DNA of 64,000 bases from Vulcanimicrobiota bacterium (GCA_050250895.1 JBFWNU010000001.1:2278210-2342209); one strand, 5' to 3'; counted from the stretch's first letter, positions 2,618-28,003 are shown. A program made the numbers and translations. The notes: a model not told the origin generated them from the sequence alone.

Positions 2618-2936
2618 AGAAGAACCTGCAAATTCGTGGTGAGACCACCTATAAAGAAGGTGGGGAGGAATTCACCCGTTTCACTAGAAAGTGCAGTCTT
2701 CTTGATCTTGAATTAGATTGTCGAATTGGAAATACCGAAGGAATCGCTCTGCAGCGAGGGCAGGTCCGGATCGGAGGGTGGTGATGGTGACATCGTGATA
2801 AACACTCTCCGGGGCGGATGTCTCTCAGGCTTAGGGTCTGGCAGTCTCTCCTCGAAGTTATCGCGGTTCGACCGCGAGACGCAATTCATTATCGGTATTA
2901 GACTACGAAAATTGACTAGGGAGGTGGGTTTGACTT

Positions 2937-5006: not shown

Positions 5007-5026
5007 TAGAACATCGTCGCCAACGA

Positions 5027-5066
5027 AGAGCGCCGTCCCCAGGGGCGGCGCTCTTTCTTTGTTTCC
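5027..5066 (+). terminator. Probable rho-independent terminator after pilQ
   Basis: GC-rich imperfect hairpin gagcgccgtcccc-a-ggggcggcgctc followed by TTTCTTTGTTT. Confidence 0.45.
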
Positions 5067-5404
5067 GGGATGGCCTTCTCGGGGCAGGCTAGAATGCTCT
5101 TCATTATACCATCCGCTGGTTTGGCTTGCAGGATCGCTTGACTTGGGAACCGAACCAAGTTCAACGACTTGAAGTTTAGTTCACGCGCGCCTGGAAAGCG
5201 ACCGTGAGTAGAACGGGCCACGACAATAGAGATAGGTCCGTGTGGCTGCTCTAGAATCAGCGTCGCGAACTGAAGAGCTACACAGTACGGGTTGGTACAA
5301 CTTGATCTCATTCGAAGGTAGGGCCTTTCACGGTCCAGCTATCCTAGTATTGTCCGACAACATTGTTCAGGGCTCCGTTATGTCCCATGGAAGGAGGTCC
5401 CACA

Positions 5405-11533: not shown

Positions 11534-11624
11534 GTGGGGCTGGCACGCAGGACTTGTTAACGTCTTCGAACAAGAATGCCCTGACTATTGAACCTGTCGA
11601 ACCGTAGGAGAGCCCTGGCCTCAA

Positions 11625-14600
11625 ATGCCTGACCAGAAGGAAGTCATCCAGCAGTGGATTCAGCACGCCAACACCCTGGCTACCCAGGGTCGGTGGGATG
11701 AAGCCCTCGCAGCTTATAACAAGGTCGTCGAGGTCGACCAGCATAATCTCGATGTGCGTCAGCACATCATTAGCATCTCCTTGAAGAAGGGTAACTACTC
11801 CGAGGTGATCCATCAGCACATGGATTGCGCCGAGATTTACCATCAGCAGGGGGATCGTGACGCTGCCATCGAGCGTTACGAAGAGATTTTGCGCCTTCAA
11901 GAAACGGTCGAAGGCCATGGCTCTAGCTTCGATGGCGGCGGAGACGCCGCCCAGGTGCACCAACTCGTAAGTCAGGTCAAGCCCGAGATCTATCACCAGA
12001 TTGGTGACTATCATCTTGAGCGCGAGAACGTTGACCTCGCTCTGCAATACCTGCGCAAAAGCCAGGAGCTTCAACCCGGCCGTTGGGACACACACATGGC
12101 CCTCGGTCGGGCCTACATGAAGAAGAGCATGGACAAAGAGGCTATCGGCGAGTTCCAGGAGGTGCTGCGACTGGCTCCCGATGAGTCTGCTCTGGCCTAC
12201 GAGAACCTCGGCGAGGTGTTCGTGCGCCAGGGCAGACCGCCTCACAGCACGGTGGTCTGGTTCCAGCACGCGGCCGAGTATTATCTCAAGAAGCAGAAGC
12301 TGGCCGACGCCACCCGCGCCTACGAGCGCATTCTCGAGTTTGATCCTCAGAACAAAGAGATTCTCTACAATCTGGGCGAGCTTTATGCTCAACAGGGTCT
12401 CAAGGAGCAGGCGGTGCGGACTTACCGCACCCTGGCCGAACTCTATGAGAAGGAGGGGCTGCTGGATAAAGTGATCCAGCTCTACGAGACCGTGGTTTCG
12501 TGGGACCCCGACAGTCAGTGGGCTACCGACAAGCTGATCTCTATCTACGAAGGCGTGTTGGGACGAAACTCTAACAACATCTCGGTTCGCGTTCGGCTGA
12601 TCGAACATCTCGCCGCCCAGGGCCGTCGCGGCGAACTGGGTCCCCACTACCTGGCCCTGGCCCAGGGTCATGTCGAGCGCGGCATGCTCGACGAGGCGGT
12701 CAAGGCGTCACGTCAACTACTCGAACTCGAGCCGCAAAACATTCAAGCCCGTGAGATCCTCGGAGACATCTATCTCAAGAAGGATATGCACTCCGAGGCC
12801 CTCGACATCTTCCAGCAGATCGTCAAGATCTACCGGGCCCAGGGCAACGAGCAGGCCGCCCTGCAGTTCCAACAACGATTGGTCGAGGTCTTTCCCCAAG
12901 CTCCCGAGCTACTCTATCAAGTAGCTCTCAGTCTCCGCGACAAGGGCGACCACGAGGGTGCCCTGCGCGAACTCGACCGCATCATCGCCCAGCGCCCCGA
13001 CGATATCAAGGCGTTGGCCTACAAAGCCGAGCTGCTGGGGCGGCTCAATCGTCTCGACGAGTCGATTCAGACCTATGCTCGGGTGCTCCAGATGGATCCC
13101 CAGCGCACCGACGTGCGCAAGCTGATTATCGAGCTTTTGATCAAGACCAATCGTCTCGAAGAGTCGTCGCGCCAGATCGGCGTCCTCTCTCCTGATGACC
13201 CCGACATCCCGGCCTTGCGCAGCCGCATCATCCTACTTTACATCGAGACGCGCCGCCTCGAGCAAGCCGAGCAAGAGCTTGCCTATCTCCCCGAAGAGAA
13301 CGAGCGGCGGCTGGTGTTCCGCAAGGAGCTGGTCAAGCTCTATCTCGACGCCGGCAATCTTGACAAGGCTTTCGAGGGTTTGCCTCAGATCCCGCGCTCC
13401 GACCGTGAGCGCAACAGTCTGGTGACCCGACTGCTCGAGATTCCGCTGGCCAAGGGCGACCTCGAGACAGCCGCCAAGACCATTCATCGGCTACCCGAAG
13501 ACGACCCGCTGCGACTGTCGTTTCAGCGCCGTCTGGTAGCCTCGTATGTCGAGGCCGGCCGGCTCGACGAGGCAGCGGACGAATGCCTGCGCCTGCCGGC
13601 CGACGACGAGGCTCGCTCGGGCTTCGTCAGTCGCCTGATCGGCGGTTTTCTCACCCAGGGCGAACTCGAGAAGGCTTCGCGCGAGATCTATCGCCTCTCC
13701 GAGGGTGACCCGCTGCGCAACTCGTTCATGGGCCAGCTCATCGAGGCTTATCTTTCGGCTGGCGAACTCGAACGGGCCGCCCAAGAGGTGGGCCGGCTTT
13801 CGCGCGAAGACGAGATCCGCCCCCGCTATCATCGACGCATCATTCAGGCCTATCTCAACGCCAGCAAGTTCGAAGAAGCCGAGCGCGACATCCTGGCTCT
13901 CGACGACTCCGACCCCGAGAAACGTTCCTTCCTGAGGCTGCTGATTCAGAAGTACCTGACGCTGGGCCAGCTCGATCGAGTGCGCGAAGTGGTGAATCGC
14001 ATGCCCGACGACATGGACGAGAAGAAGCAGTATCTCGACGGGTTGGTCCACAACTATCTCGACACCGGCGACCTGGCCGGTGCCCGTCATCAAATCTATC
14101 AGATGGCCGAATCCGAGGCCTCTCAGGGCAACCACAAGGAGGCCGAGCGTCTCTATCGCGAGATTCTCGCCTATCAGCCCGCCGACGCCGAGATTCGCTT
14201 GCGGTTGTCCCAAGAGATCGCGGTCCAGGGTCAGACCGAACGCGCCCGCGAGGGTATGCTGGTGCTGGCCGGTCGCTTCCACCGCGAGAACAACGTGACT
14301 TCGGCGGCCGACGTTTATAGCCGCATGCTCGAGGTCGATCCTAACGACCTCAACGCCCGTTACAAACTGGGCACTCTGTGGGCTGAGCAAGGTCAGACGG
14401 CCCAGGCCCTCGAGCAGTTTGGCGCCCTGGCCAAGGTCTATCTCGAACAGAACCTGCCCGAGGTGGCCCAGAAGGTTCTCAACAAGATACTCGAGCTCGA
14501 TCCGAAGGACATGGAGCATCGACGCCAGGCGATAAGGCTCTTGATCCGCAACTTGCGTTTCGAAGAGGCGACCGAGCACTATCGCGCCTTGATGGGCATC

Positions 14601-16001
14601 CATCTTGAACGGGGCGAAGTCGACGAGGCGCTCGAATGCGTCAAGGAGATCGTCAATCTCCAACCGCTCAACCTCGAGCTGCGCCAGTCGCTGGGCGCGA
14701 TGTTCCTGCGCGCTGGCTTCTTGGAGCAGGGTCAAAACCTGCTCGAAGAGTTGGCCCGCGACGCCGAAGACAAAAGGGACAACGAACGTCTGCTACGGGT
14801 GCTGTGGACGCTGGTTCGCTCCTTCGAAGAGAACGAGCAGTGGGAGATCTCGCTCGAATATCGCGAGCGCATCGCCGACCTGTTGCGCTCGCTTGATCAA
14901 TGGCAAGAGGCCCACGAGGAGTATCTCAAGATCATCGAGGGCTACCTCATCCACGAGCAGAAAGAGCCCAGCGAGCCCATTTTCGTCAAGGTTATCGATG
15001 GCTTCTTCCGCAATCGCGTGGTTCCCGAGGGGCTCAGCAAGCTCGACGGCCTGGAAGAGTCGCTATCTGATGCGGGGCATCACAAGATGGCGCTGCTGGT
15101 TCGCGAGCGGACGGCCTCGATCATGGAGCGACTCGACGAGTGGGATCGGGCTATCGAGATGTACGACGGCATCTCCGAGCGCTATCTCGAGTTGGGCGAA
15201 GTCGAGCTGGGTCTCGAGTTCCGCCGCCGCGCCGCCGATCAGGCTCTAAATCACGAGCGCATCGAGCAGGGTGTCGAGCATCTCTTCGTGCTGGCAGGCG
15301 CCACCGTGGAGCACAGGGGACTCGAAGAGGCTCGGCCGGTCCTCGATGAACTGCGCAAGACGGCGCAAGATGATGTCGGCTATCTCGAGCGCCTGGGTGA
15401 TGTCCTGTTCAAACACTCTCTGTTCGAAGAGGCTCGTCCCATCTACGCCGAGGTGCTCGAACGAGAGCCCGGACGCCCCGAGGCACTCTCGCGGGTAGCC
15501 ATCATCTATGCCCGCGAAGGGCGCCTGGAAGAGGCCGCCGATGTGGCCAAGCAGATCTTCTCGAAAGGTCTCGTGTCCAGGATCATCAAAGAATATAAAG
15601 AAGCTACTGGTTTCACCGAGGGCGACGCTGGTTCGCACGTGCGTCTCGGGCAGTTCTATCGACAGATGGGCTTCCTGGAGGAGGCGATTCGTGAGTTCCT
15701 GGTCGCAAGCCAGGATCCCAGCCGACTGTTGGGCGCTTACAATCATTTGGCCCAATGCTTCCGGCAGCAGGGTTATTTGGAACTCGCGGTCAAGCAGTTC
15801 CAGAAGGCGCTCGACCAGCCCGGTTATCGGGACGAAGAGTTGCTTGAGTTGCGCTTCAATCTAGCCTGCGCGCTAGAAGATATGGGGCGACATAAAGCAG
15901 CCCTGGCGGCGTTCCAGGAGTGCTACGTCATCGACATCCGCTATCGAGAAGTGGCACAAAGGATCGAGGCCCTCATGGCGAATATGCACGCAGAGGTATA
16001 G
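11625..16001 (+). CDS. Giant TPR-repeat protein (1458 aa), paralogous C-terminus to the preceding gene
   Basis: Continuous TPR-like helical repeats throughout. Its last ~100 aa align with the last ~100 aa of the 5405-11533 product (LG.CF..G…LA.KQF.K.L…ELLEL.NLA…CY..DI). Confidence 0.85.
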   Translation: MPDQKEVIQQWIQHANTLATQGRWDEALAAYNKVVEVDQHNLDVRQHIISISLKKGNYSEVIHQHMDCAEIYHQQGDRDAAIERYEEILRLQETVEGHGSSFDGGGDAAQVHQLVSQVKPEIYHQIGDYHLERENVDLALQYLRKSQELQPGRWDTHMALGRAYMKKSMDKEAIGEFQEVLRLAPDESALAYENLGEVFVRQGRPPHSTVVWFQHAAEYYLKKQKLADATRAYERILEFDPQNKEILYNLGELYAQQGLKEQAVRTYRTLAELYEKEGLLDKVIQLYETVVSWDPDSQWATDKLISIYEGVLGRNSNNISVRVRLIEHLAAQGRRGELGPHYLALAQGHVERGMLDEAVKASRQLLELEPQNIQAREILGDIYLKKDMHSEALDIFQQIVKIYRAQGNEQAALQFQQRLVEVFPQAPELLYQVALSLRDKGDHEGALRELDRIIAQRPDDIKALAYKAELLGRLNRLDESIQTYARVLQMDPQRTDVRKLIIELLIKTNRLEESSRQIGVLSPDDPDIPALRSRIILLYIETRRLEQAEQELAYLPEENERRLVFRKELVKLYLDAGNLDKAFEGLPQIPRSDRERNSLVTRLLEIPLAKGDLETAAKTIHRLPEDDPLRLSFQRRLVASYVEAGRLDEAADECLRLPADDEARSGFVSRLIGGFLTQGELEKASREIYRLSEGDPLRNSFMGQLIEAYLSAGELERAAQEVGRLSREDEIRPRYHRRIIQAYLNASKFEEAERDILALDDSDPEKRSFLRLLIQKYLTLGQLDRVREVVNRMPDDMDEKKQYLDGLVHNYLDTGDLAGARHQIYQMAESEASQGNHKEAERLYREILAYQPADAEIRLRLSQEIAVQGQTERAREGMLVLAGRFHRENNVTSAADVYSRMLEVDPNDLNARYKLGTLWAEQGQTAQALEQFGALAKVYLEQNLPEVAQKVLNKILELDPKDMEHRRQAIRLLIRNLRFEEATEHYRALMGIHLERGEVDEALECVKEIVNLQPLNLELRQSLGAMFLRAGFLEQGQNLLEELARDAEDKRDNERLLRVLWTLVRSFEENEQWEISLEYRERIADLLRSLDQWQEAHEEYLKIIEGYLIHEQKEPSEPIFVKVIDGFFRNRVVPEGLSKLDGLEESLSDAGHHKMALLVRERTASIMERLDEWDRAIEMYDGISERYLELGEVELGLEFRRRAADQALNHERIEQGVEHLFVLAGATVEHRGLEEARPVLDELRKTAQDDVGYLERLGDVLFKHSLFEEARPIYAEVLEREPGRPEALSRVAIIYAREGRLEEAADVAKQIFSKGLVSRIIKEYKEATGFTEGDAGSHVRLGQFYRQMGFLEEAIREFLVASQDPSRLLGAYNHLAQCFRQQGYLELAVKQFQKALDQPGYRDEELLELRFNLACALEDMGRHKAALAAFQECYVIDIRYREVAQRIEALMANMHAEV

Positions 16002-16015
16002 CGGGAAGGGGTTAC

Positions 16016-17461
16016 GTGAAAGTTTTGTTCACAAGCGAAGCGACGCGGGGGCTTAGACGAATCGGGCTGGCCAGTCTGATAGCCCTCACGTCCATCCAGG
16101 CTGCTTGGGCCGACGAGGGCGGCTTTATGGATGTCCTCAAGCAGCAAGAGAACAACCTTTTCCTTGGCATGATAGGCCTCGGTGTGACCCTGGTGGTCTT
16201 GATCGTGGCCGAAGTCGTTCTCTCCAAGCGCGAGAGCAGTTCTTCACTCGATATCGACCGATTGGCGGCTGCGGCTCAGCGCAAGCAGCAGAGCGCGATG
16301 GCCGCCGCCGCGCAGGCTAACCCCGGGGGAGCCTATGCTCCGCCCCCTCCGCCTCCTCCGCCGCGTCCCGGGGCCCCGCCCCCACCACCTCCGCCGCCGA
16401 GCCCTTCCGCGGCCCCATTACCGCCCCCGCCGCCGCCTCCGTCGTTTGACGAAGACGTCAATCCATTTCAAAAATTGTCCCGCCTGGCCGCCGATGACGA
16501 GATGGCTCCGGTGGGCGCGCCGCCGCCGCCCCCGCCGCCACCTCCTCCGCCGCCTATGAGTTTTCCGTCGGCCGGTCCGGCTTCCGAGGAAATGGCTCCT
16601 CCGCCGCCGCCTCCGCCCCCGCCCCAGTTTGCGCCTCAGGGCAGCGGTGAGATGCCCTCCATGGGCATGCCCACCTCGCCACTCGGAGGAGGAGGATTTA
16701 ACGCACCGCCGCCTCCACCACCTCCGCAGGGCATGCCCACGGCACCCCTCGGAGGCGGTTTCAACGCACCCCTGGGCAGTCCGACCTCTCCCCTGGGAGG
16801 TTTCAATTCGCCGATGGGCACGCCGACGACGGCGCTGGGCAACCTCGGCTCTCCCACCACCTCCCTGGGCAACCTGGGCAACATGGGGACTCCGACCACC
16901 GCCCTGGGAGGCATTCCCGGGATGGGCTCGTCGGGTCCGCCCTCGCTCGAGTCGACCAGTCCTCTGGCCGGGCCCGGCGGAGAAGCCGGGGGTGGTGGCT
17001 GGGCCGACCTGCTCCAGCGCGTCCGGGCCGGAGAACCCGAAGCAGCATCTTTTTCGGGGGGCGGGGCTACACCGCCGCCCTCAACCGAAGACGAACCTCC
17101 TCGGCAGAGTCCGTTCCTGCCCACCGGTGGCTTTAATACCGGTGGTGGTGGCGGTGGGGGGGGCTCGTCTGAAGCTTGGGAAGCCCTTTTGAAGAAGACG
17201 ACCGGGGATGACCCCGGGCGTCCCAAGAAGCCCGGAGGAGGCGACGTCGGTCGCATCCAACTGGGCTCGGGCGAAGGTTTCTCGCTACCCGGCATGGGCG
17301 GCGACAGCGGAGGCAGTCCCCTGGACTTCCTCGGTGGCGGTAGGTCCTCTGAGGAGGGTTTACCCGATGTCGTCAAAAAAGCAAGCCGGACGATCTCTTT
17401 GGACTTGAAGAAGGGAGGGGGACAAACCCCGCCTCCCCCGCTTCCCAAGACTGAGGGATAG
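16016..17461 (+). CDS. Proline-rich single-pass membrane protein with polyproline (FH1-like) tracts and WH2-like motifs
   Basis: GTG 16016 follows a GGGAAGGGG RBS (the track ORF at 15920 overlaps the upstream stop). Signal-peptide-like LASLIALTSIQAAWA|DE. TM helix LFLGMIGLGVTLVVLIVAEVVL. Four runs of 8-12 Pro. Gly/Thr/Pro-rich tail containing ADLLQRVRAG and EALLKKT. Confidence 0.7.
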   Translation: MKVLFTSEATRGLRRIGLASLIALTSIQAAWADEGGFMDVLKQQENNLFLGMIGLGVTLVVLIVAEVVLSKRESSSSLDIDRLAAAAQRKQQSAMAAAAQANPGGAYAPPPPPPPPRPGAPPPPPPPPSPSAAPLPPPPPPPSFDEDVNPFQKLSRLAADDEMAPVGAPPPPPPPPPPPPMSFPSAGPASEEMAPPPPPPPPPQFAPQGSGEMPSMGMPTSPLGGGGFNAPPPPPPPQGMPTAPLGGGFNAPLGSPTSPLGGFNSPMGTPTTALGNLGSPTTSLGNLGNMGTPTTALGGIPGMGSSGPPSLESTSPLAGPGGEAGGGGWADLLQRVRAGEPEAASFSGGGATPPPSTEDEPPRQSPFLPTGGFNTGGGGGGGGSSEAWEALLKKTTGDDPGRPKKPGGGDVGRIQLGSGEGFSLPGMGGDSGGSPLDFLGGGRSSEEGLPDVVKKASRTISLDLKKGGGQTPPPPLPKTEG

Positions 17462-17469
17462 ACTAGCTC

Positions 17470-18384
17470 ATGCCAGCAGTATTAGGAGGCGAGTTGCTTC
17501 TCCCTAAAGGGAATGCCTTAATCGAGGACATCACGCTCCCGGTCCATGATATCGAGACGATGATCACGAATCTCGAGAGTGATCATTTCACTGGCTACGT
17601 TCGTCTGGATATCAGCGGAACCGAGGGGCTGGTATTCTTCTCATCGGGAGAAGTCTTGCGGGCCATCGAGCTTCCCAGCGGAGCGGACCCCATCGTCCGG
17701 TTGCTGCCTCGCGTCATTAATCTGGCCCGGCAACGGATGGAAGTGCCCGCTTCGTCCTACGTAATGAGCCCCCAGATCATCTCGGTGCTGTCGAGCGTTT
17801 TTGCGTTTAAGCCCAAATACAAAGACTACCAAGTCAAGCGTAAAGAGATGAAGAAGGTGCTCAACAGTCTCGAGCAAGATGAGTGCTCGGGCATCCTCAA
17901 GATGGTGGGTCCCGACGGTCGAGTGTGTCTGTTGATGGACCGAGGCAATCTGGTCACCGACCGGTTCGCCACCAACTACGGAGAGGTGGTCTGTGGAGCC
18001 GAATCGGTCAGCAGCGTGCTCGACTATGTGCACAAAAACGGCTCGACCATCCAGGTTTATGCCGAGAAGGCCAACGAGATCGACAACCTGCGCCGGCGGG
18101 CTGAAGACGAACTAGAAAAGATTCGGCAGCTGATCGTCAAAGAGAAGTCGGGCATGTTCCGAGCCAGTGACGTGGTCAAAGTGGCTGAAGACATCATTCG
18201 CGACTGGGGCATCGATATCAAGCAGACCTTCATGGTCGAGATCGAAACCGGCACCGGCGAACTCTTCAACTTCAAGTGCCAGGCCGGACGCAAACTGGGC
18301 GGCTACGCCGAAGTGCATTCAAATATGCTCAAGACCATGTCAGTCAACGAAGGAGACCTCGTCAACGTTCGACCGATCGGTTGA
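17470..18384 (+). CDS. Hypothetical protein, possibly tandem DUF4388/PATAN-like domains
   Basis: 304 aa, starts 9 nt after the previous stop. Two repeated segments (HFTGYVRLDISGTEGLVFFSSGEVL / ECSGILKMVGPDGRVCLLMDRGNLV) recall DUF4388 from memory. The domain call is unverified. Confidence 0.6.
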   Translation: MPAVLGGELLLPKGNALIEDITLPVHDIETMITNLESDHFTGYVRLDISGTEGLVFFSSGEVLRAIELPSGADPIVRLLPRVINLARQRMEVPASSYVMSPQIISVLSSVFAFKPKYKDYQVKRKEMKKVLNSLEQDECSGILKMVGPDGRVCLLMDRGNLVTDRFATNYGEVVCGAESVSSVLDYVHKNGSTIQVYAEKANEIDNLRRRAEDELEKIRQLIVKEKSGMFRASDVVKVAEDIIRDWGIDIKQTFMVEIETGTGELFNFKCQAGRKLGGYAEVHSNMLKTMSVNEGDLVNVRPIG

Positions 18385-18398
18385 CGTCAACACACACC

Positions 18399-18755
18399 AT
18401 GGCCGACCTGATGGATGTTCTACAGAACTTTTGCCGACTTGACCACGTGCAGGGAGCGGCCATTCTCGATGCCAACGGCTTCGTGGTAGAGCAGCATTTT
18501 GTCGGGGATCAGGATAGTGCTCCCGTGGGCGAGATTATCCTGCGCAGCCTTCAGGCGGGGATGCAACTGTCCGAAGAACTCGGCAAGGCACCTCTGACCC
18601 AGCAGTATATCGAATTTGCAGATGTCCAGCTGACAGCCGAAATCTTGACCGCGGGTTTCGTGCTGGTGATCCTGGCTGGAGCTGGGGCGAATCTTGGTAG
18701 GGTGCGTCTCGAGATTCGCAAGAACAAAGGTGCGGTAGAGCGGATGCTGGCCTGA
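18399..18755 (+). CDS. Roadblock/LC7 (MglB-like) domain protein
   Basis: 118 aa from ATG 18399. Roadblock-like core GAAILDANGFVVEQ…QYIEFADVQLTAEILTAGFVLVIL. The longer track ORF start at 18276 (GTG) is an upstream extension. Confidence 0.8.
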   Translation: MADLMDVLQNFCRLDHVQGAAILDANGFVVEQHFVGDQDSAPVGEIILRSLQAGMQLSEELGKAPLTQQYIEFADVQLTAEILTAGFVLVILAGAGANLGRVRLEIRKNKGAVERMLA

Positions 18756-19135
18756 TGAGTGCAAAGAAGATCCTGATCGTTGACGACGAGCCCCATGTGC
18801 TCGAGGTCTTGAGAGTCACTCTCGAGGACTTCGGCTTCAAGATTCTCGAGGCGATGGACGGCGAAGACGCCATCGCCACCGTCCAGGAACAGCGTCCCGA
18901 CCTCGTGGTCCTCGACGTGATGTTGCCTGGACGCGACGGTCAAGAGATTTGTCGCCAGCTCAAGGCTTCCAGCGACACGGCGGCCATTCCGGTGATCATG
19001 CTGACCGCCCGTAGCGGTCCCGAGAACGAGCGCGAAGGGCTCGAGGCAGGGGCGGATGCCTACTTGACCAAGCCGTTTAGCCCACTAACGCTGCTCTCCG
19101 AGGTTCATCGTCAATTGCAGCTTGAAATTGCGTAA
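18755..19135 (+). CDS. Response regulator, receiver (REC) domain only
   Basis: CheY-like motifs ILIVDDEP…LVVLDVMLPGRDG…TKPFSP. The ATG overlaps the upstream TGA (TGATG). Confidence 0.9.
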   Translation: MSAKKILIVDDEPHVLEVLRVTLEDFGFKILEAMDGEDAIATVQEQRPDLVVLDVMLPGRDGQEICRQLKASSDTAAIPVIMLTARSGPENEREGLEAGADAYLTKPFSPLTLLSEVHRQLQLEIA

Positions 19136-19144
19136 TAGGCCCCA

Positions 19145-20722
19145 ATGCGGCCGGACCTCGAAAAGCGACCACGTGAGCAGTTGCTCGCGCTCTATGAGAT
19201 AGGGCGGGCGATCAACTCTACCCTCGAACTCGAAGATGTGCTCGACCGGATCCTCGAGATGACGCTGGGGTTGTTCCATGCCGAGGCCGGCTCGATCATG
19301 CTGCGGCAGGACGATGTGTTGACCATCGCGGTGGCCCGTGGATTGACCGCCACGATCGTGGCCGAGACGCGCGTTCCCATCGGGGAGGGTATTGCCGGCT
19401 GGGTGGCCCAGACAGGCGAAATGATTCGCCTTGATGGCAAGGTCGACGATCCTCGCTTCGTCAGCCTGGTGGAGCGCGAGGACAACATCACGTCGTCGCT
19501 GTGCGCCCCCTTGCTCCATCGTTCTCAGGTGGTCGGAGTCTTGATGCTGCGGCGCGGGGGCGAGACCACCTTCACCCCCGATCAGTTAGATTTTCTGGCC
19601 TCGGTGGCCGATCAGGCGGCCATCGCTCTCGAGAATGCCCGTCTCTACGCCGAAGAGATCAAGCGCTCGAAAGAACTCGAGCTTGAACGGCAGAAGCTCG
19701 AGATGGTGCTGGCTTCGATGGCCGACGGAGTGGTGGTGTGTCACCCCGATGGCGAGATTCGGCGCCACAACCAGATGGCCGGCCAGTTGCTCGGCTGGAG
19801 CCAGGAGGCGGTGGGCCAGAAATTGCCGGAGCTGTGTCCGTCGCTGCCTTTCGAGCACCTGTGGGAGCAAGTCAATCAAGAAGGAACCTACGTCTGTGAC
19901 TTGCGCAGCGCCGACACGACCTTGCGCATCGTGGCGACTGCTTTGCGCTTTCAAGACGAGAGCCCCGAGGGATTGGTGGCTCTGTTTCATGACGAGACCG
20001 AACGGGCTCGGGTCGAGAAGATGAAGTCTGAGTTTCTCTCGATGGTCAGCCACGAACTCAAGACCCCGATCACCACCATCCAGGCCTTCGCCGAGCTGAT
20101 GCTCTATCGGGACTTTCCCGAGGAGCGCAAGCGCAAGTTTCTGCAGATCTGCCTTACCGAGTCGCAACGGTTGCAGAAGTTGATCGAAGAGATTCTCGGC
20201 CTGTCGCGGCTCGAGGCCGGACAGTTTGCTTTCCACAAGGTGCCGTGCCGCCTCGATGAGCTGGCTCGCAGTTTGCTGCCGGGTTTCGTGGAGCGTTCGG
20301 CCAGCCACGATATCCAGCTCAAGGTGCATGGCGACCTGCCCACGCTTGAACTGGATCCGACCTTGATGACCCAGGCCCTGTCCAATCTGGTCTCTAATGC
20401 CATCAAGTATTCACCCGACGGCGGACCCATCACCATCGAGCTAGGGGCTGAGCCGGAACGAATCCTGGTCTGTGTGCGCGACCAGGGGATCGGCATTCCG
20501 GAGGACAAGATACCGTTCGTGTTTGAAAAGTTCTTCCGGGTCGACAACTCGCTCACGCGCAAGACTGGAGGGACTGGCCTCGGCCTAGCGAACTGTAGAT
20601 ATATCGTGGAGGGCCACGGGGGCACTATCTGGGTCGAGAGTCAACCCGACCTCGGAAGCCGATTCAGCTTCACCCTACCCTGCCCCCCTTCCGCCCCAGG
20701 AGGATCGGATGCTCAAGTCTGA
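19145..20722 (+). CDS. GAF-domain sensor histidine kinase
   Basis: N-terminal GAF, HisKA H-box SHELKTPITTI, HATPase G-boxes (GIGIPED…GGTGLGLA). Confidence 0.9.
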   Translation: MRPDLEKRPREQLLALYEIGRAINSTLELEDVLDRILEMTLGLFHAEAGSIMLRQDDVLTIAVARGLTATIVAETRVPIGEGIAGWVAQTGEMIRLDGKVDDPRFVSLVEREDNITSSLCAPLLHRSQVVGVLMLRRGGETTFTPDQLDFLASVADQAAIALENARLYAEEIKRSKELELERQKLEMVLASMADGVVVCHPDGEIRRHNQMAGQLLGWSQEAVGQKLPELCPSLPFEHLWEQVNQEGTYVCDLRSADTTLRIVATALRFQDESPEGLVALFHDETERARVEKMKSEFLSMVSHELKTPITTIQAFAELMLYRDFPEERKRKFLQICLTESQRLQKLIEEILGLSRLEAGQFAFHKVPCRLDELARSLLPGFVERSASHDIQLKVHGDLPTLELDPTLMTQALSNLVSNAIKYSPDGGPITIELGAEPERILVCVRDQGIGIPEDKIPFVFEKFFRVDNSLTRKTGGTGLGLANCRYIVEGHGGTIWVESQPDLGSRFSFTLPCPPSAPGGSDAQV

Positions 20723-22139
20723 ACACAAAACGACCCTGGATCGCAAGATCGAACGTTTTCGAGGTATTCTCAATCGAGCCCCGGAGGATACTCTGACCGC
20801 CCTGGCTCTGGCTGAGGCTAGCTTTCGCAGGGGACTACGCCTGGAAGCGTTGACCGCCTATCAAGAGGTCAGCAAGAAGCACTCGGTGGCCGAGGCTCAT
20901 CTGGCCATCGCCCAGATCTACAGCCGTCAAGGCATGTTGGTCGAGGCGTATGAAGAGATCGCTCGGTTGCTAGAACTCGAACCCGAGAACATCGAGGCGC
21001 GATTGCTGGCCCAAGAACTCGAAGAGGTGCATCCCATTCCCGAGGGCATTCGCCTGAGCATCGGTCGGACTCCGTCGCTCGAGGCTATTCGCGAGACGCG
21101 CTTGCGCGTGAAGATTCAACGCGGCATCTTCACCCGCGAGATTCAAGAGTTGACCCGCAACGCCACCCTCGAACCGGCCGAGCCGATTCATGAATACTAC
21201 CTGCAAGAGGCCAAAAAGCGTCTGGCTCGGCTCGACGAGGTGATGGTTACCCTCGAAGAGATGGAACGTAGCGCCGAGAAGTTCTTGCCGCCCAAACCCG
21301 ACTTGATGACTCCCTTCGAGGCCAAAGAGAGCGAGCCGGTCGCACCTCTCGAGGAGCCCGCTCTGACCGATTACGCGCCCGAACCGGTGGCCTCGACCGA
21401 AACCGTTGCTGACGAGGCGGCCGTCATCCCGATCGATCCGGCACCGCTTGAAGAACTGCCTCTCATCTATGATGACGTCGGGGGCGAGAACATCTTCAGC
21501 ACCGATATTCCACCGGAATACGAAGACCTCAGCGAGATGCTCGATTTCGAAGGTGGGTCCAAGTCGGATTCTTTCGATCTTTCTCACATGTTCGACAGCT
21601 CTGAGGGGGGCGACGAGGTGGTGGTCGAGACCGACGAGCCGGTTGCGACGTTCGAGTCCGAGTTTGAGACCGAGCCCGTTTCGGAACCAGAGCCCGAACC
21701 CGAACCCGAACCCGAACCCGAAGCAGAGTCGGCTCCGGCGTTCATTCCTGACTCAGCCGCCCGGGATCAGTTCTATCTCGACATCAGCTCCAAGCTCGAA
21801 GAGCTGACCTCGACTCTTTCCAAGACCCGCGGAGTCACTTCGATCTTCGTGGTCTCGCGCCGCGGCCGCGTGGTTCAAAGCATCAGCGAAGACGCCATCA
21901 GCGCCGAGCGAGTCGGCGAGACGGTCGTCGAGGGTCTCGATTTCCTCGAGACCTTCGCCCAGGAGCCGGCCTATTGGGTGCTCGAGTGCGACGGCGGCAT
22001 CTTCATCATGCAGATCATCGACGCTCAGCACGTGGTGGTGGCCATCGGGCAAAAGGGCGCGAACTTCGGGGCTCTGCGCTTCACTCTCGACAAGAGCCGA
22101 CCCAAGTTCTCCGAACTTTTGGCCGATCTGCCGGGTTAG
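20709..22139 (+). CDS. TPR protein with acidic PE-repeat linker and C-terminal roadblock/LC7-like domain
   Basis: GGAGGA RBS, overlaps the HK stop. N-terminal TPR, (EP)n linker, C-terminal GVTSIFVVSRRGRVVQSI…YWVLECDGGIFIMQIIDAQHVVVAIG (roadblock-like). Confidence 0.75.
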   Translation: MLKSEHKTTLDRKIERFRGILNRAPEDTLTALALAEASFRRGLRLEALTAYQEVSKKHSVAEAHLAIAQIYSRQGMLVEAYEEIARLLELEPENIEARLLAQELEEVHPIPEGIRLSIGRTPSLEAIRETRLRVKIQRGIFTREIQELTRNATLEPAEPIHEYYLQEAKKRLARLDEVMVTLEEMERSAEKFLPPKPDLMTPFEAKESEPVAPLEEPALTDYAPEPVASTETVADEAAVIPIDPAPLEELPLIYDDVGGENIFSTDIPPEYEDLSEMLDFEGGSKSDSFDLSHMFDSSEGGDEVVVETDEPVATFESEFETEPVSEPEPEPEPEPEPEAESAPAFIPDSAARDQFYLDISSKLEELTSTLSKTRGVTSIFVVSRRGRVVQSISEDAISAERVGETVVEGLDFLETFAQEPAYWVLECDGGIFIMQIIDAQHVVVAIGQKGANFGALRFTLDKSRPKFSELLADLPG

Positions 22140-24500
22140 GTGGCGGGCGACGCGCGCTTAGAGCGAGTCTCGAGCGCGTTTTTTCGTCTGATCGACACCC
22201 TTTGCCTGGGGTTGCTCATGGGGCTGGTCTTCTTTCCGGCCATCCCCGCCCTGATCTACCTGGCTTCCCTGCTCTGGGGCTTTGACGCCCAGACTCTGTT
22301 GACCGGTGAAGTTACGCCGGGCAAAGTGTTTCTCTATATCTGCGCGGGCACCGATAGCGGGGCTCAACTGGCTTCGGGAGGCAGCCTGCTGCGCGGACTG
22401 GGTCTGTTGGCCCTGGCTTTCTGGCTGCTGTTGCCCCGGCAACTGGCCGCTCCGGTGCGACCGCTGGCCCGACTGACTCTGGGACTGGGCCTGGTCGGAG
22501 TGGTGGGGGCATTGAGCTGCGACCATCCTCGAGACGCCCTGGTGGGTTGGATGGATCTTCTCTTGCCCCTGGCTCTGGCCATCATGGCCGCCGACCTGGG
22601 CTGGCGCGAGCGCAACAAGAATAGCCTGTTGGCTGCCTTCGTGGCCAGCCTGGCAGTGGTCTTGCTGGTGGCCTACATCTCCTTTGCGCTGGGCTTTTCT
22701 CCCGACGAGCGCATGCGCGGGTCGTTCTTTCATCCCAACATGCTGGCGGCTTACCTCTTGCTCGGCCTGGGACCGCTGGCCTATATGGTGCTGGCCGAAC
22801 AAGGCCAAGACCGGCCAGGCCAGGCGGCGTTGGCTCCGGTGCTGGCCGCTCTGCTGGGCTCGCTGCTGTTGACGGGCTCGCGGGCCGCCTGGCTGGCGGT
22901 AGCGCTGTTGGCGGGCCCGCTGGGGGCCGGACTGGTCAGCCGCTTCTCGCAACGGCGCCAGCTGTGGATGCTGGGCTTTCCCCTGGCAGGAGGTATCCTC
23001 TGCCTGGGAGCCCTTCTTCACTGGTGGATCGTGCTGGTGCTCGCGGCCGCCCTGCCGCTGGTCTGGTTGAGGCATCTCTCCGAGCCCCGCAAGTTCTTGC
23101 CCAAGCTGATCGTTGTGCTGGTTTTGGCCGGCTGCTTCGGATTGGGCTTGATGACGGTCGATCGCCAGAACAGTCCCACCAACCGAATCGAAGGGGCCAT
23201 CTCTTCCAACTCGTTCAAGGCCAGGCTGCATTTCTGGTCGGCCTCACTAGCGATCGCTCGCAACCATCCCTGGTTGGGGGTCGGCCCCGACGGATTTCAC
23301 CGGCACTACCCGGCGTATCAGACCGACATCCGCTATTTCTCGAAGTTCACCCACTCCTTGCCCATGTCGCTGTTGGCCGAGTGCGGCCTCCTCTTCACGG
23401 TGCCGGCCGTGGCCTGGTTGTGGCTGGCGGGGTCGGTCCTGTGGGCAAGAGCCAGAGAAGGTGACTTTGGGCTGGGCTGGGCGATTTTCTGGTCGGTCGC
23501 CATGTGGCTGGTCCACGCCTGCTTTGACGTCGACCTGCAGTTTCCGGCCCTGGGGTTCACGGCCGGTCTTCTGCTCGGTTTGGCGCTAGCCCAGGAACCG
23601 TCGGCCGAAGAGCCAGCCGAGCAAGAGCCGCGCTCTCAATGGTCGATTCGGCCCGGCTTGCTCAGCCAGTATCCCCTGGCCGTGGTGGCCGTGATGCTGT
23701 GTCTCGTCAATGCCCAGTTGACCTTTGCTGCCCATCATACCCGGCTGGCCGACCTGGCCTCGGGAGTGTCGGAATATAAAGCTGCCGCCGACCTCTATCG
23801 CGAAGCCATGCGTCTGGACCCCTTCGACGGCGAGAACTATCGCAAATTGGCTCTGGTAGCCATGGTCGCCCCCGCCCTCGAGGTGCCTGACGAGACTCTC
23901 GAGCAGCTGAGCCAACAGGCTCTAGCTCTCGACCCCCATCGCCCCGTCTGTCATAATTTACGCGGCCGTGTTTTGGAGCGGCTTGGCCAGGACGGGCGAC
24001 CGGCCTTCCGCCGTGCCCTCGAGCTCGACAGCTTCAACTATCCCTCGTTCTATCGTGACCTGGCCGAGGCCTATCGAGTCCGCGGCCAGCCCCAGGTTGC
24101 CCTCCAGCTCGTCGAGCAGGCCCTGCGCCGGTTCCCCGATGAGGCCCGGACTCAGGTGCAAGACAGCCGGGTGAATACCCTCACCAGCCAGATGGCAGGG
24201 CTCTACGAAGAGCAGGGCTTCCTCTTAATCGAGCAAGAATCGACCCTTCCGGCCTCGCAGCGGGCCTTCGAGCAGGCTCTGGCCCTGGAGGATTCGGCCA
24301 ATCGCCGCTTCGGCCTGGCCGTCAGCCTGATGGGGCAAAAGCAGTTCGCCCGGGCCGCCGAAGAGTTCGAGAAAGTGGTCAAGCTCGACGATTCGTCACG
24401 CCAAACCTGGGAATTTCTCGGCCACTGCTACGCCAAACTCGGCCGCCTCGAAGACCTCAAACGCGTCAACCGCTCCCTGTCGACGCGAAGCGTCGATTAG
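22140..24500 (+). CDS. O-antigen ligase (Wzy_C)-like polytopic membrane protein fused to C-terminal TPR repeats
   Basis: ~12 predicted TM helices with LTGSRAAWLAVALLAG (Wzy_C-like) then a ~250-aa TPR tail. GTG start adjacent to the upstream TAG; start uncertain. Confidence 0.7.
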   Translation: MAGDARLERVSSAFFRLIDTLCLGLLMGLVFFPAIPALIYLASLLWGFDAQTLLTGEVTPGKVFLYICAGTDSGAQLASGGSLLRGLGLLALAFWLLLPRQLAAPVRPLARLTLGLGLVGVVGALSCDHPRDALVGWMDLLLPLALAIMAADLGWRERNKNSLLAAFVASLAVVLLVAYISFALGFSPDERMRGSFFHPNMLAAYLLLGLGPLAYMVLAEQGQDRPGQAALAPVLAALLGSLLLTGSRAAWLAVALLAGPLGAGLVSRFSQRRQLWMLGFPLAGGILCLGALLHWWIVLVLAAALPLVWLRHLSEPRKFLPKLIVVLVLAGCFGLGLMTVDRQNSPTNRIEGAISSNSFKARLHFWSASLAIARNHPWLGVGPDGFHRHYPAYQTDIRYFSKFTHSLPMSLLAECGLLFTVPAVAWLWLAGSVLWARAREGDFGLGWAIFWSVAMWLVHACFDVDLQFPALGFTAGLLLGLALAQEPSAEEPAEQEPRSQWSIRPGLLSQYPLAVVAVMLCLVNAQLTFAAHHTRLADLASGVSEYKAAADLYREAMRLDPFDGENYRKLALVAMVAPALEVPDETLEQLSQQALALDPHRPVCHNLRGRVLERLGQDGRPAFRRALELDSFNYPSFYRDLAEAYRVRGQPQVALQLVEQALRRFPDEARTQVQDSRVNTLTSQMAGLYEEQGFLLIEQESTLPASQRAFEQALALEDSANRRFGLAVSLMGQKQFARAAEEFEKVVKLDDSSRQTWEFLGHCYAKLGRLEDLKRVNRSLSTRSVD

Positions 24501-25498
24501 ACCGGCGTGTAGAGACCGCCCAGGTGGCGCAAGACCAGGCCTTTGAGTTCGAGATGCACCAGGGCCCGGGCCAGGGCCGGAGCGTCAAAGCCCGTCTTGA
24601 CGCTCAGTTCGGCCATACTCGAGCCGCCGGGGTCAAGAGCCTGGTAGACTTGAGCGAGCGGTTCTTCAAGCTGGGGCGGAGCAGCCAGCTGGGTCGCATA
24701 ACCCAACTGATCGATGATGTCGTCCACCCCGCGCACGATGGATGAGCCCTCATAGAGCAGTTTGTGAGTGCCGTCCGAGTTGGGGTTGCCCACGTGACCG
24801 GGGGCCGCCATCACGGTCCGGCCCAGATCCTGGGCCAGGTCGGCTGTGATCAAAGCGCCGCTGCGGAGGCCGGCTTCGACCACGACCACTACCTGGCACA
24901 ACCCGGCTACGATGCGATTGCGGGCCGGAAAGCGCCAGGCGGCGGGGGCGGTTCCGGCCGGGTACTCGCTGAGCAGACAGGCCTGGCGAGCCATCTGGGT
25001 CCGCAGGGCCCGGTTGGTCCGAGGGTAGTCATAGTCGAGGCCGCAGCCAAGCACGGCTACCGGGTGAGCCTCGGAGCGAAAGCTGGTCATGGCGCCCTGG
25101 TGGGCGGCCGAGTCGATGCCCATCGCCAATCCACTCACCACCACCACCCCGCGAGCGGCCAGGTCGGCACCCAGACGGTAGGCCAAAGTCCGTCCATAGG
25201 GAGTGGCCCGGCGAGAGCCCACGATGGCAACCCGGGGATGCTCGGGGCTGGGAAAGGGCAGCCCGGCGCGATAGAGCAGCGCTGGCGGGTCGCACAGATC
25301 CAGTAGCGAGATGGGATACTCCAGGTCCCCGGGAGTCAACGCCGCAAACGGATCGCTCGGGTTGCAGTGCTTCAATTTTAGGCGCTTGACCACGGCTTCG
25401 GGGCTGCCCATCTGTTCGACCAGAGCAGCGATCTGGCGCGGACCCAGTCGAGACAGACCCAGAGTCAGCCAGGCTTGGCGTCGGTTCGGGGCGCTCAT
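24497..25498 (-). CDS. dprA: DNA processing protein DprA (Smf)
   Basis: Rossmann-like DprA core VVVSGLAMGIDSAAHQGA. The start is taken at the internal ATG (MSAPNRR…) with a GAGGAG RBS; the longer track ORF runs to 25573. Confidence 0.8.
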   Translation of the reverse strand: MSAPNRRQAWLTLGLSRLGPRQIAALVEQMGSPEAVVKRLKLKHCNPSDPFAALTPGDLEYPISLLDLCDPPALLYRAGLPFPSPEHPRVAIVGSRRATPYGRTLAYRLGADLAARGVVVVSGLAMGIDSAAHQGAMTSFRSEAHPVAVLGCGLDYDYPRTNRALRTQMARQACLLSEYPAGTAPAAWRFPARNRIVAGLCQVVVVVEAGLRSGALITADLAQDLGRTVMAAPGHVGNPNSDGTHKLLYEGSSIVRGVDDIIDQLGYATQLAAPPQLEEPLAQVYQALDPGGSSMAELSVKTGFDAPALARALVHLELKGLVLRHLGGLYTPV

Positions 25499-25672
25499 CG
25501 ATGCTCCTCGGAGTAGCCAGCCGGCGAGAATTTTTCCATAGTGAGTGAACTCATGATTTGTTGCTCCTCTCACCGTCCAGTATGAAGCCGATTTAAGACC
25601 GTAGCGTGTCGAGCTTGTGAACGGTCGATTGCTAGGATGTTTCTAAATCCTTAACGTCGAATGGGCGGGCCT

Positions 25673-26203
25673 ATGCGATATCGTTCCACTACGATTGTTT
25701 GCGTCAGCCGCAACGGCCAGGTCGCCATGGCTGGCGATGGTCAGGTTTCGGTTGGCCAGACAGTCATGAAACATCACGCCCGCAAAGTCCGGCGCATGGG
25801 CGACGGCAAGGTGCTCGGCGGCTTTGCTGGCTCGGCTGCCGACGGCCTGACTCTGTTCGATCGCTTCGAGACGCGTCTGTCCGAGTACGGCGGACAACTC
25901 AAACGAGCGGCCGTCGAGCTGGCGCGCGAGTGGCGGATGGACAAATTCTTGCGTCGCCTCGAAGCGATGCTGCTGGTGGCCGACCGTGAGACGGTGCTGG
26001 TGCTCTCGGGCAACGGCGACGTGCTCGAGCCCGATCACGGGGTGGCGGCCATCGGTTCGGGCGGCTCTTACGCTATGGCGGCCGCCCGGGCCTTGCTGGC
26101 TCACACCGACATGTCGGCCGAAGAGGTGGCGCGGTGCTCGCTCGAGATCGCTGCCGAGATCTGCGTTTACACCAACAAGGAGATCGTTCTGGAGAGTCTA
26201 TAG
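25673..26203 (+). CDS. hslV: ATP-dependent protease subunit HslV
   Basis: Strong identity to HslV ([21 protein letters not shown]…[14 protein letters not shown]…[16 protein letters not shown]). A 5-residue extension MRYRS precedes Thr. No hslU follows. Confidence 0.9.
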
Positions 26204-26206
26204 CAC

Positions 26207-28003
26207 TTGTCCTCCCAACCGTCGAAGCTCGGACCCGTCCTGGCGGCCATGCTGGCAGGTCTTCCGCTTTTGTGCGGGTTGCTGAGCGGCCGTTCCGAGC
26301 TGCTCGCCCCCTTCTTGGCACTGGCTGCCGTGGCCGCGGCGGCGGGCTGGTGGATCGGTCAGCGCTCGGTGCTGTTGAGCAACTTCGAAGAGCTGCAGGC
26401 TCAGCTCGATAGCGAACGCACCCGGGCCGCCCAGCTTGAACAAGAACAGGCAGCGGCCCGCCAGCTCCATCTGCGCGAGCGCAATGCGCTTCACGATCTG
26501 GGGCTCGACTTTTCGCGCAACGAAGAATCGGAAGACTTCCTGGGCCAGGTGGCCAACCACCTGGTGGAGTTGATGGGCGGCGGCATGCTGACCATCTACC
26601 TCTGCGAAGGCGTCGATCGACTTGAGCGCGCCTGCGTGGCGGGCTTTCAAGCCGAGCAAGCCGGGCAGACCCTGGCCGTGAAGGTTCCGGGTTTTCAAGA
26701 GCTCGCCAACGGCCAGACCGGCTGCCTCGAGTTGACCGAGCAACCGCTTTGCGACCAACCCTTGTTGCGGGGGCGCTTTCCGTCGGAACGGCTGACCCGC
26801 TACCTGGCGCTACCCATGAACAGCGGCGGCGAGTTTGTCGGCCTGATGGAGGTTTGTCCTGAGGGCGAACTTGATCCCGCCGTGCTCGAGTTGATGGTGA
26901 TGCTGGCGGCGGTCGTGGCGGTCGTGGTGCGCAACTTGCGTCTCCACCGCCAACTCAAGGGCGAGCGAGTGTTCTCGTATGTGGTCCTCGAAGAGATGGA
27001 AGACGGAGTCTTCACCCTCGACGCCGAGCTGAAACTGGCCACCTTCAATCGGGCCGCCGAGACCATCACCGGTTGGACCCGGCAGCAGGTCCTGGGGCGT
27101 GCCTGTCACGAGGTCTTCAGCCAGGACAACTACGGCCGCCTGCTCGAGCAGATGGCCACCGGCGAGGTGGCCGTCGTGCCTCAAGAGCTGAAGATGCCGG
27201 TGCGCGACGGGGTCCAGAAATACATCTACTTCCAGCCCTCCCGCCACGAGAGTCCGCGCCCCACCGGGCCCAGCCTGGTGGTGGTGTTTCGCGACATCTC
27301 CAAAGTGCGAGAACTCGAGAATCTACGCAACGACTTTACCACCACTCTGTCGCATGAGCTGAGAACTCCGCTGACCAGCATTAAAGGCTACATTCACACC
27401 CTGATGCACAAGAAAGCCGAGAAGTTCAGCAGCGAGAAACTGCAGAGTGTGCTGGCTATCGTGAACCATCAGGTGGACCGACTCAGTCGCTTGATCGCCG
27501 ACCTGCTCGAGGCTGCTCGCCTGGGCAGCCAGGCGCTCGAGGTGCATCCCCGACCGGTGCGGGTGGCCGGGCTCATCAGTGAGGTGATCGAGGCCTATCG
27601 CGAGAAAGAGCCGGGCTTTCCGGTGAGTCTCGAATGCCCCGATGGGGCTCAGGTACTGTGTGATCCGGACCAGATTCGCTACGTGCTGGAGCATCTGCTT
27701 TCCAACGCCGTGAAATACTCGATTCCGGGCGGTCAAATCCAGATCGTGGCCAGCCCCGAGTCGAGCTTACTGAGGGTGGCCATCCGCGACGAAGGGGTCG
27801 GGATCCCCTTTGACCAACAACAGCGGATCTTCGAGATGTACCATCGGGTGGACACCGAGAACACGCGATCCCACTACGGAGTTGGAATGGGCCTCTATAT
27901 CGCCAAGAAGGTGATAGAGGCCCATGGAGGTGGGATTGAGGTGGAGAGTGCCCCGGGTTACGGGTCGACCTTCTCCTTTACCTTACCGCTCAAACAAAGA
28001 TGA
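26207..28003 (+). CDS. Membrane-anchored GAF/PAS sensor histidine kinase
   Basis: N-terminal TM segments, GAF-like and PAS-like regions, HisKA SHELRTPLTSIKGYI, HATPase GVGMGLYIAKK…GGGIEVES. Confidence 0.85.
   Translation: MSSQPSKLGPVLAAMLAGLPLLCGLLSGRSELLAPFLALAAVAAAAGWWIGQRSVLLSNFEELQAQLDSERTRAAQLEQEQAAARQLHLRERNALHDLGLDFSRNEESEDFLGQVANHLVELMGGGMLTIYLCEGVDRLERACVAGFQAEQAGQTLAVKVPGFQELANGQTGCLELTEQPLCDQPLLRGRFPSERLTRYLALPMNSGGEFVGLMEVCPEGELDPAVLELMVMLAAVVAVVVRNLRLHRQLKGERVFSYVVLEEMEDGVFTLDAELKLATFNRAAETITGWTRQQVLGRACHEVFSQDNYGRLLEQMATGEVAVVPQELKMPVRDGVQKYIYFQPSRHESPRPTGPSLVVVFRDISKVRELENLRNDFTTTLSHELRTPLTSIKGYIHTLMHKKAEKFSSEKLQSVLAIVNHQVDRLSRLIADLLEAARLGSQALEVHPRPVRVAGLISEVIEAYREKEPGFPVSLECPDGAQVLCDPDQIRYVLEHLLSNAVKYSIPGGQIQIVASPESSLLRVAIRDEGVGIPFDQQQRIFEMYHRVDTENTRSHYGVGMGLYIAKKVIEAHGGGIEVESAPGYGSTFSFTLPLKQR

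Follow-up and report, generated by a model that had tools for sequence, protein, structure and literature searches.

A PATAN/Roadblock gene block of class Xenobia with an accessory two-component pair and no GTPase gene in its vicinity

Five genes located between positions 17470 and 22139 of a 64,000-nucleotide stretch of DNA from a Vulcanimicrobiota bacterium (GCA_050250895.1, JBFWNU010000001.1:2278210-2342209; the whole stretch is referred to below as the window) were predicted, from the sequence alone, to form an operon centred on Roadblock/LC7 proteins. The five open reading frames (ORFs), designated here g1 to g5, were all confirmed on the plus strand with the predicted boundaries:

17470-18384, plus strand: g1, 304 amino acids, two PATAN-like (DUF4388-like) domains and a C-terminal double-psi beta-barrel
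18399-18755, plus strand: g2, minimal Roadblock/LC7 protein (PF03259), 118 amino acids
18755-19135, plus strand: g3, stand-alone receiver, 126 amino acids (Response_reg, PF00072, 108 bits)
19145-20722, plus strand: g4, soluble GAF-PAS-HisKA-HATPase_c histidine kinase, 525 amino acids (Pfam)
20709-22139, plus strand: g5, 476 amino acids, TPR / helical hairpin / acidic linker / Roadblock

The genes are tightly packed, with overlapping or nearly abutting junctions: g1 and g2 are separated by 14 nucleotides and g3 and g4 by 9, while g2 overlaps g3 by 1 nucleotide and g4 overlaps g5 by 14.

The first gene had been described as possibly encoding a tandem DUF4388/PATAN-like protein. For the protein of the window taken alone the score against the DUF4388/PATAN profile (PF14332) was 20.4 bits with a cut-off of 25, and the match was confined to residues 28-77 and to profile positions 9-47 of 122. 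At the family level the description was supported. A match to DUF4388 at E<=0.01 was obtained with 34 of the 42 members of the g1 family (best E 2.4e-7), some of which scored above the cut-off (e.g. 28.1 bits), and the two N-terminal domains of g1 aligned with each other in register (hhalign 95.3%, E 2.3e-8), the motif common to them being the N-terminal core of PATAN. Because of these family-wide matches and the alignment between the domains, the profile comparisons support the label of a tandem PATAN-like protein at the level of the family. In the AlphaFold model (predicted local distance difference test, pLDDT, 91) the two appear as similar alpha/beta domains spanning residues ~15-107 and ~114-216. 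When the g1 domains were compared as single sequences with two bona fide PATAN proteins of a distant locus (L016, see below), hhalign gave no significant match. The C-terminal part, which had escaped the original prediction, has the fold of a double-psi beta-barrel of the Cdc48/VAT-N type. The true start of g1 is likely to be the TTG codon at 17494, four bases past an AGGAGG sequence; the homologues are 296 amino acids long.

The g2 protein matched the Robl_LC7 profile (PF03259) with 38.4 bits (cut-off 23) over profile positions 4-91 of 91, and members of its family, which comprises 105 clusters, are annotated as Roadblock/LC7 by NCBI and JGI. The closest solved sequences were those of an archaeal Roadblock protein (7f8m), CvnB5 and MglB, the match to the solved MglB amounting to 13 bits (E about 0.5). 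Similarity to the MglB proteins that adjoin MglA in two distant loci (L016 and L020) was inconsistent, hhalign giving 67% for one of them and 0.4% for the other. With 118 residues g2 is shorter than the ~160 residues typical of an MglB-type protein and lacks the C-terminal extension of the 160-170-residue MglBs of L016 and L020. Nor is there an MglA-family gene within about four genes of g2, the distance that has been used to define coupling for MglB-family genes (PMC4316618).

A second Roadblock domain had been proposed at the C-terminal end of g5. The Pfam profile alone did not establish it (Robl_LC7 was sub-threshold with 13.1 bits, E 0.08, besides weak TPR matches), and a sequence search of the C-terminal part against PDB sequences returned noise only. 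By contrast, comparison of this part with the profile of the g2 family gave an hhalign probability of 97.4% (E 1e-11, 109 columns). The AlphaFold model of g5 consists of TPR helices (residues 9-105), a long helical hairpin (124-192), a disordered acidic linker (~200-345) and the Roadblock domain (350-471), the latter having an alpha-beta-beta-alpha-beta-beta-beta-alpha topology with pLDDT above 90. The top Foldseek matches of this C-terminal model were an archaeal Roadblock3 (9jue) and MglB of Myxococcus xanthus (6hjm; E 2.5e-6, template modelling score normalized to the target 0.84-0.88). Profile-profile comparison and a structure model thus confirm that g5 carries a second Roadblock domain. 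Since the hhalign match is accompanied by a GANxGxxR motif common to both proteins, g2 and the C-terminal domain of g5 are, judged by sequence, paralogues. The linker of g5 contains 21% Glu and 14% Pro and has an (EP)6 run at residues 326-337.

The remaining two genes were correctly recognized as encoding a stand-alone receiver and a GAF histidine kinase, although a PAS domain in the kinase had been missed. The phospho-acceptor pocket of g3 is intact (D10, D11, D54, T84 and K106). The kinase g4 has the phosphorylatable H303, recognizable N, G1 and G2 boxes (NAIKY, DQGIG and GTGLG) and no membrane segment, so the two proteins together possess all the catalytic residues of a classical two-component system. 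From the adjacency of their genes only, we infer that g4 and g3 are cognate partners. The best NCBIfam matches of both proteins were all far below the family cut-offs.

Comparison with relatives, each inspected over about 20 kb, showed that this pair is not always present. In a distant Xenobia lineage (L001/L002, on a 1.56-Mb contig) the gene order is g1, g2, a gene for a 122-residue protein, g5 and a gene for a membrane protein with a Wzy_C domain and TPRs (Wzy_C-TPR). The 122-residue protein (L001, 11227-11595) aligns to the receiver, but DD is replaced by FE and D54 by Ser. It is thus a pseudo-receiver lacking both the acidic pocket and the phospho-acceptor Asp; no kinase gene is present at the L001 locus. 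In locus L027 (10001-11573) g1, g2, g5 and the Wzy_C-TPR gene follow one another, with neither receiver nor kinase. As one lineage has a pseudo-receiver without a kinase and another has neither protein, the invariant core is g1-g2-g5 and the kinase/receiver pair is accessory, in agreement with the suggestion that a two-component pair had been inserted here.

The five genes do not stand alone. Gene order and spacing indicate that, rather than forming an operon of their own, they make up the centre of a nine-gene block of approximately 19 kb, whose other members and apparent upstream border are as follows:

5025-5056, plus strand: intrinsic-terminator-like hairpin immediately 3' of pilQ, 14-bp stem (9 of the pairs G-C) leading into a T-rich tail
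5363-11533, plus strand: first gene of the block, giant protein of 2056 amino acids, TPR / about 1100 amino acids of low complexity / TPR (Pfam TPR families)
11625-16001, plus strand: giant TPR protein of 1458 amino acids (Pfam TPR families), orthologues at the same position 57-70% identical
16079-17461, plus strand: single-pass membrane poly-proline protein with one hydrophobic segment; start codon uncertain, the ORF opens at 15920
22140-24500, plus strand: Wzy_C (O-antigen-ligase-like) multi-pass membrane protein with C-terminal TPRs (Pfam Wzy_C 49 bits, TPRs, hydrophobic segments)

The poly-proline gene ends 8 nucleotides before g1, and there are 0 nucleotides between the stop codon of g5 and the start of the Wzy_C-TPR gene, which is the last of the block and is convergent with dprA. 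The stop codons of the Wzy_C-TPR gene (plus strand) and of dprA (minus strand) overlap by 4 nucleotides (24497-24500), which leaves no space for a terminator between them. The hairpin at 5025-5056 is the strongest, and the only strong, terminator-like site of the plus strand within 5000-24900. It probably marks the upstream boundary of the transcription unit extending from the TPR genes to the Wzy_C-TPR gene, and because of it the block is probably transcribed apart from pilM-pilQ.

The middle part of the 2056-residue protein is rich in P, E, A, S, G and F, gives a Pfam Nucleoporin_FG match (48.3 bits, residues 775-848) and contains three (EP)n runs. The linker of g5 had been said to be of the same type as that of the giant TPR protein, which is correct with respect to these (EP)n runs. 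In composition the 2056-residue protein resembles a phase-separating or brush-like scaffold. The poly-proline protein (21% Pro, 17% Gly, six runs of 7-12 prolines) gave no Pfam match; only its C-terminal ~150 residues are conserved in relatives, in which its gene is always directly upstream of g1.

On the far side of the hairpin pilM (1517-2617) and pilQ (2937-5006, with an AMIN domain) adjoin each other, and pilD lies at 235-1086. The 319-nucleotide gap between pilM and pilQ holds no credible ORF for pilN, pilO or pilP, and no PilB/PilT-type ATPase is encoded anywhere in the 64-kb window. Downstream of the block hslV (25661-26203) is followed after 3 nucleotides by the gene (26207-28003) of another GAF-PAS histidine kinase, which shares 28% identity with g4, and a GAF-GGDEF protein is encoded at 30977-32575; hslU was not found in the window.

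The order 2056-residue TPR protein, 1458-residue TPR protein, poly-proline protein, g1, g2, receiver, kinase and g5 was found by tblastn and gene calls in 13 other Xenobia loci, the flanks of the inspected regions ending inside the giant TPR genes. In these loci protein identity ranges from 33 to 75% and G+C content from 40 to 66%. The families of g1, g2 and g5 comprise approximately 40-105 clusters each, and all named members belong to class Xenobia of the Eremiobacterota (Vulcanimicrobiota/UBP9) or to a mis-binned metagenome-assembled genome (MAG). The literature on Xenobia was found to contain nothing on motility or on this operon. These data bear on the explanation that the region is no functional unit at all, a generic two-component pair having come to lie among unrelated hypothetical genes. 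The kinase and the receiver are indeed generic in sequence, as their low NCBIfam scores attest. Against this, order and orientation have been kept over the whole range of identity and base composition given above, start and stop codons overlap or abut, and a protein derived from the receiver has been retained in the same slot where the kinase was lost. On the sequence evidence the absence of a functional unit is already contradicted by synteny, and we consider it extremely improbable.

The junction between g1 and g2, a 14-nucleotide gap in the window, is an insertion hot-spot in relatives (L005, 10415-11632; L007, 10857-15280; L008, 10969-13074; L026, 9552-9878). The inserts, some of 1-5 kb, encode a multi-pass glycosyltransferase-like protein, an 891-residue membrane protein with a GT2 domain, an epimerase, a hexapeptide acetyltransferase and unknown proteins on the opposite strand. 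In L011 (MAG UBA6111) a DDE-transposase-like ORF (11069-12787) directly follows g1 and none of the remaining operon genes lies within the following 10 kb, which reflects either disruption mediated by an insertion sequence or misassembly; L011 was left out of the comparison.

The neighbours of the core raise the question of its target. The proposal that the genes form a control module for the adjacent type IV pilus system was overstated, inasmuch as the terminator-like hairpin intervenes and the conserved neighbours are Wzy_C-TPR or glycosyltransferase genes rather than pil genes. An alternative would be an envelope-glycan system, in which the TPR, Roadblock and PATAN proteins organize or regulate a Wzy_C-type polymerase, ligase or O-oligosaccharyltransferase together with glycosyltransferases, the adjacency of pilM-pilQ being coincidental. 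The Wzy_C-TPR gene is located directly 3' of g5 in 15 of 16 loci, and in the sixteenth (L025) it is replaced by GT4 and PMT_2 glycosyltransferase genes. Glycosyltransferase, epimerase or acetyltransferase genes are found between g1 and g2 in relatives, the hairpin separates pilQ from the block, and L001 retains the core and the Wzy_C gene without giant TPR genes or pilM/pilQ nearby. Set against these observations, we know of no PATAN or Roadblock protein that regulates a Wzy-type enzyme. The pilin O-glycosylases PglL and TfpO belong to the Wzy_C family, and for this reason the pilus and the glycan explanations can coincide. Roadblock and TPR regulators are known from the polarity of pili and gliding. 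For PATAN domains, the partners established by experiment are PilB and PilC (bioRxiv 10.1101/2021.06.11.447907). On balance we regard a purely glycan-related function as a credible possibility, though one with clearly less than an even chance.

As predicted, no gene for a small GTPase of the MglA type is present in cis, either here or in about 17 related loci. A profile hidden Markov model (HMM) of MglA was constructed from the M. xanthus protein and the two orthologues encoded in L016 and L020, with which the M. xanthus sequence aligned closely and both of which the HMM recovered at E<1e-115. With this HMM no MglA-like ORF was detected among the six-frame ORFs of the window (64 kb) or, at the 13 Xenobia loci, over a distance of about 10 kb. 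In a Walker-A scan of the six frames of the window MutS and a UvrD-type helicase were the only matches in real genes, and nothing MglA-like appeared; the inserts between g1 and g2 in relatives never encode a GTPase. The missing GTPase is by itself not very surprising because orphan Roadblock genes are common: 328 of 749 MglB-family genes (44%) are uncoupled from mglA, and among 238 genomes with MglB-family genes 200 encode an MglA-family protein and 38 do not (PMC4316618).

Outside Xenobia the PATAN tandem does occur with MglA. A profile search with the g1 family found 395 proteins at E<=1e-3. In the distant ones the similarity is limited to some 190 residues at the N-terminal end, and several of them have a Pfam DUF4388 match. 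In L016, a low-G+C MAG, the order over 920-10765 is REC-PATAN, PAS kinase, NtrC-type regulator, receiver, PATAN, g1-like, PATAN-DUF8082, dCache-HAMP, MglB (168 residues) and MglA (194 residues). In L020 it is g1-like, a 269-residue protein, MglB (167 residues) and MglA (194 residues), and both GTPases show MglA hallmarks including TVPGQ. Locus L019 contains REC-PATAN, g1-like and an MglB-like gene truncated by the contig end; two other distant relatives (L022 and L023) have no Roadblock gene in the context of the g1-like gene. The 125- and 127-residue proteins encoded beside the g1 relatives in L016 and L020 could not be demonstrated to be Roadblock proteins. The PATAN cluster of L016 is unusually rich and can serve well as a standard of comparison for the version of the module that includes a GTPase. 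Hence the pairing of a PATAN tandem with a Roadblock protein exists outside Xenobia, and there it includes MglA, whereas in Xenobia the gene next after the Roadblock gene encodes the receiver, the pseudo-receiver or g5. The co-occurrence of PATAN with MglA/MglB, on which the original prediction had drawn, is stated in PMC4316618, where Makarova et al. (2006) are cited for the observation that PATAN genes neighbour mglA and mglB, and it is seen directly in L016 and L020.

These findings can also be accommodated by an ordinary MglA-dependent polarity system with dispersed genes, in which g2 and g5 would regulate, in the manner of MglB and MglC, a small GTPase encoded elsewhere in the genome. Roadblock proteins are classically partners of GTPases, romR, romX, romY and mglC are unlinked from mglBA in M. 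xanthus, and distant relatives of g1 adjoin true MglB-MglA pairs. The proportions quoted above from PMC4316618 (an MglA-family protein in 200 of 238 genomes, 44% of the MglB-family genes uncoupled) are in line with such an arrangement, and the DNA inspected amounted to some 64 kb here and some 20 kb in each relative. On the other side, no MglA-like ORF was found in the window or in any Xenobia locus inspected, g2 lacks the C-terminal extension of MglB and has marginal similarity to it, and the slot after the Roadblock gene holds a receiver or nothing. We therefore consider an ordinary dispersed system possible but rather unlikely.

The interpretation that we prefer, and to which we assign about an even chance, is that the block encodes a cytoplasmic scaffold-and-signalling module specific to class Xenobia, in which a phosphorelay serves as an optional input to a scaffold of PATAN and Roadblock proteins. 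The data establish the gene content, the folds and the synteny, and also that the kinase/receiver pair is optional; all the interactions and the target are inferred. By analogy with other Roadblock domains, which dimerize, g2 and the tethered domain of g5 would probably form homo- or heterodimeric platforms. The TPR head of g5 and the two giant proteins combining TPRs with disordered regions could anchor this platform at an envelope machine, which the PATAN protein g1 would contact as the output element. In most lineages the soluble GAF-PAS kinase g4 would phosphorylate the single-domain receiver g3, encoded at the place where mglA follows mglB in canonical systems. Being a single-domain regulator, g3 would have to act through protein contact with its partners, and could thus modulate the complex. 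As its likely target we see the machinery of type IV pili, the Wzy_C-type glycan enzyme that is co-transcribed with it, or both: domain precedent and the nearby pilD, pilM and pilQ genes point to type IV pili, the Wzy_C-TPR or glycosyltransferase neighbours to a surface glycan. The module may work without a small GTPase or may use an unlinked one.

Several observations weigh against a scaffold module of this kind or against parts of it. The g1 protein of the window is under the Pfam cut-off, its match extending over just the first third to half of the DUF4388 profile, and its PATAN-like domains had no solved structural counterpart among the matches listed in two PDB fold searches, these being matches to the C-terminal barrel only. 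The pil genes lie beyond a strong terminator-like hairpin, the only universally kept neighbours are the Wzy_C-TPR or glycosyltransferase genes, and the glycosylation genes that sit between g1 and g2 in some relatives point to a glycan rather than to a pilus. An unlinked mglA elsewhere in the genome is possible, given the extent of the regions inspected. The receiver cannot be an obligatory switch because in L027 the core is present without it. A stricter variant of the scaffold reading would be a GTPase-free polarity or scaffolding module in which the phosphorylatable receiver would be the switch that docks on the g2/g5 platform and steers the PATAN output to the pilus or glycan machinery. The pseudo-receiver, which one lineage kept after the kinase was lost, hints at a structural role of the receiver fold as a partner of that platform; we regard this variant as improbable.

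From bacteria up to the Ragulator complex of humans, Roadblock/LC7 proteins are regarded as small-GTPase platforms, and for PATAN domains a role as output modules in contact with the motor of the type IV pilus is emerging. The block described here, strongly conserved and specific to one phylum, joins the two with TPR-disordered scaffolds and an optional phosphorelay but with no GTPase gene. It could show how such a platform comes under the control of another switch, or to what extent the genes of GTPase partners can become unlinked. With its three natural forms (the complete two-component pair, a pseudo-receiver alone, or neither) it offers a ready comparative series. The practical value is limited for now, Xenobia having no cultured representative.

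Among known systems the polarity module of M. xanthus (MglA, MglB, MglC, RomR/RomX, the TPR effector SgmX and PATAN proteins) is similar in many respects. A pair of Roadblock paralogues, a protein with a receiver domain, TPR proteins containing disordered linkers and PATAN proteins are found in both, as is a link to type IV pili (PMC10329633, PMC12719032, PMC11580455), and the complex of MglB and MglC with RomR in M. xanthus shows that Roadblock paralogues can serve as a scaffold (PMC10329633, PMC12719032). In the Xenobia block, by contrast, there is no MglA nearby, one Roadblock protein is a minimal one of 118 residues and a disordered linker connects the second Roadblock domain with a TPR head. 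The receiver consists of the bare domain and has a kinase of its own, and all parts are encoded in a single block, unlike the scattered genes of Myxococcus. The PATAN-MglB-MglA neighbourhoods of L016 and L020 resemble the block in having a homologue of the tandem PATAN-like N-terminal part of g1 near a Roadblock gene, with receivers and kinases nearby. They differ from it in that a 167-168-residue MglB is followed directly by a true MglA (TVPGQ), where here the Roadblock gene is followed by the receiver gene; moreover, g1 has a double-psi beta-barrel in addition, and these neighbourhoods contain nothing equivalent to g5.

Cyanobacterial PatA-type regulators (PixE, PixG) likewise combine PATAN with a phosphorylatable receiver near pilus genes. 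In these proteins PATAN is the output that binds PilB1 and PilC, and in Synechocystis the PATAN domain alone binds PilB1, is found at the membrane and reverses phototaxis (bioRxiv 10.1101/2021.06.11.447907). Unlike in the PatA type, PATAN and receiver are separate polypeptides here, g3 lying two genes 3' of g1, PATAN occurs twice and in fusion with a beta-barrel, the kinase belongs to the classical HisKA rather than the CheA type, and Roadblock proteins are included. The actinobacterial conservons (CvnA kinase, CvnB Roadblock, CvnC, CvnD GTPase) share with the block the presence of a histidine kinase and a Roadblock protein in one operon (PMC13343842, PMC4316618). They have a GTPase, a DUF742 protein and a membrane-bound HAMP kinase but no receiver, whereas the Xenobia block has a receiver and a soluble GAF-PAS kinase but neither GTPase nor DUF742 protein, and so does not belong to the conservons. 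The block thus reuses the parts list of known systems in a new arrangement; what is new is the architecture of g1, the TPR-linker-Roadblock fusion, the order of Roadblock gene then receiver gene, and the natural series of loci with and without the phosphorelay.

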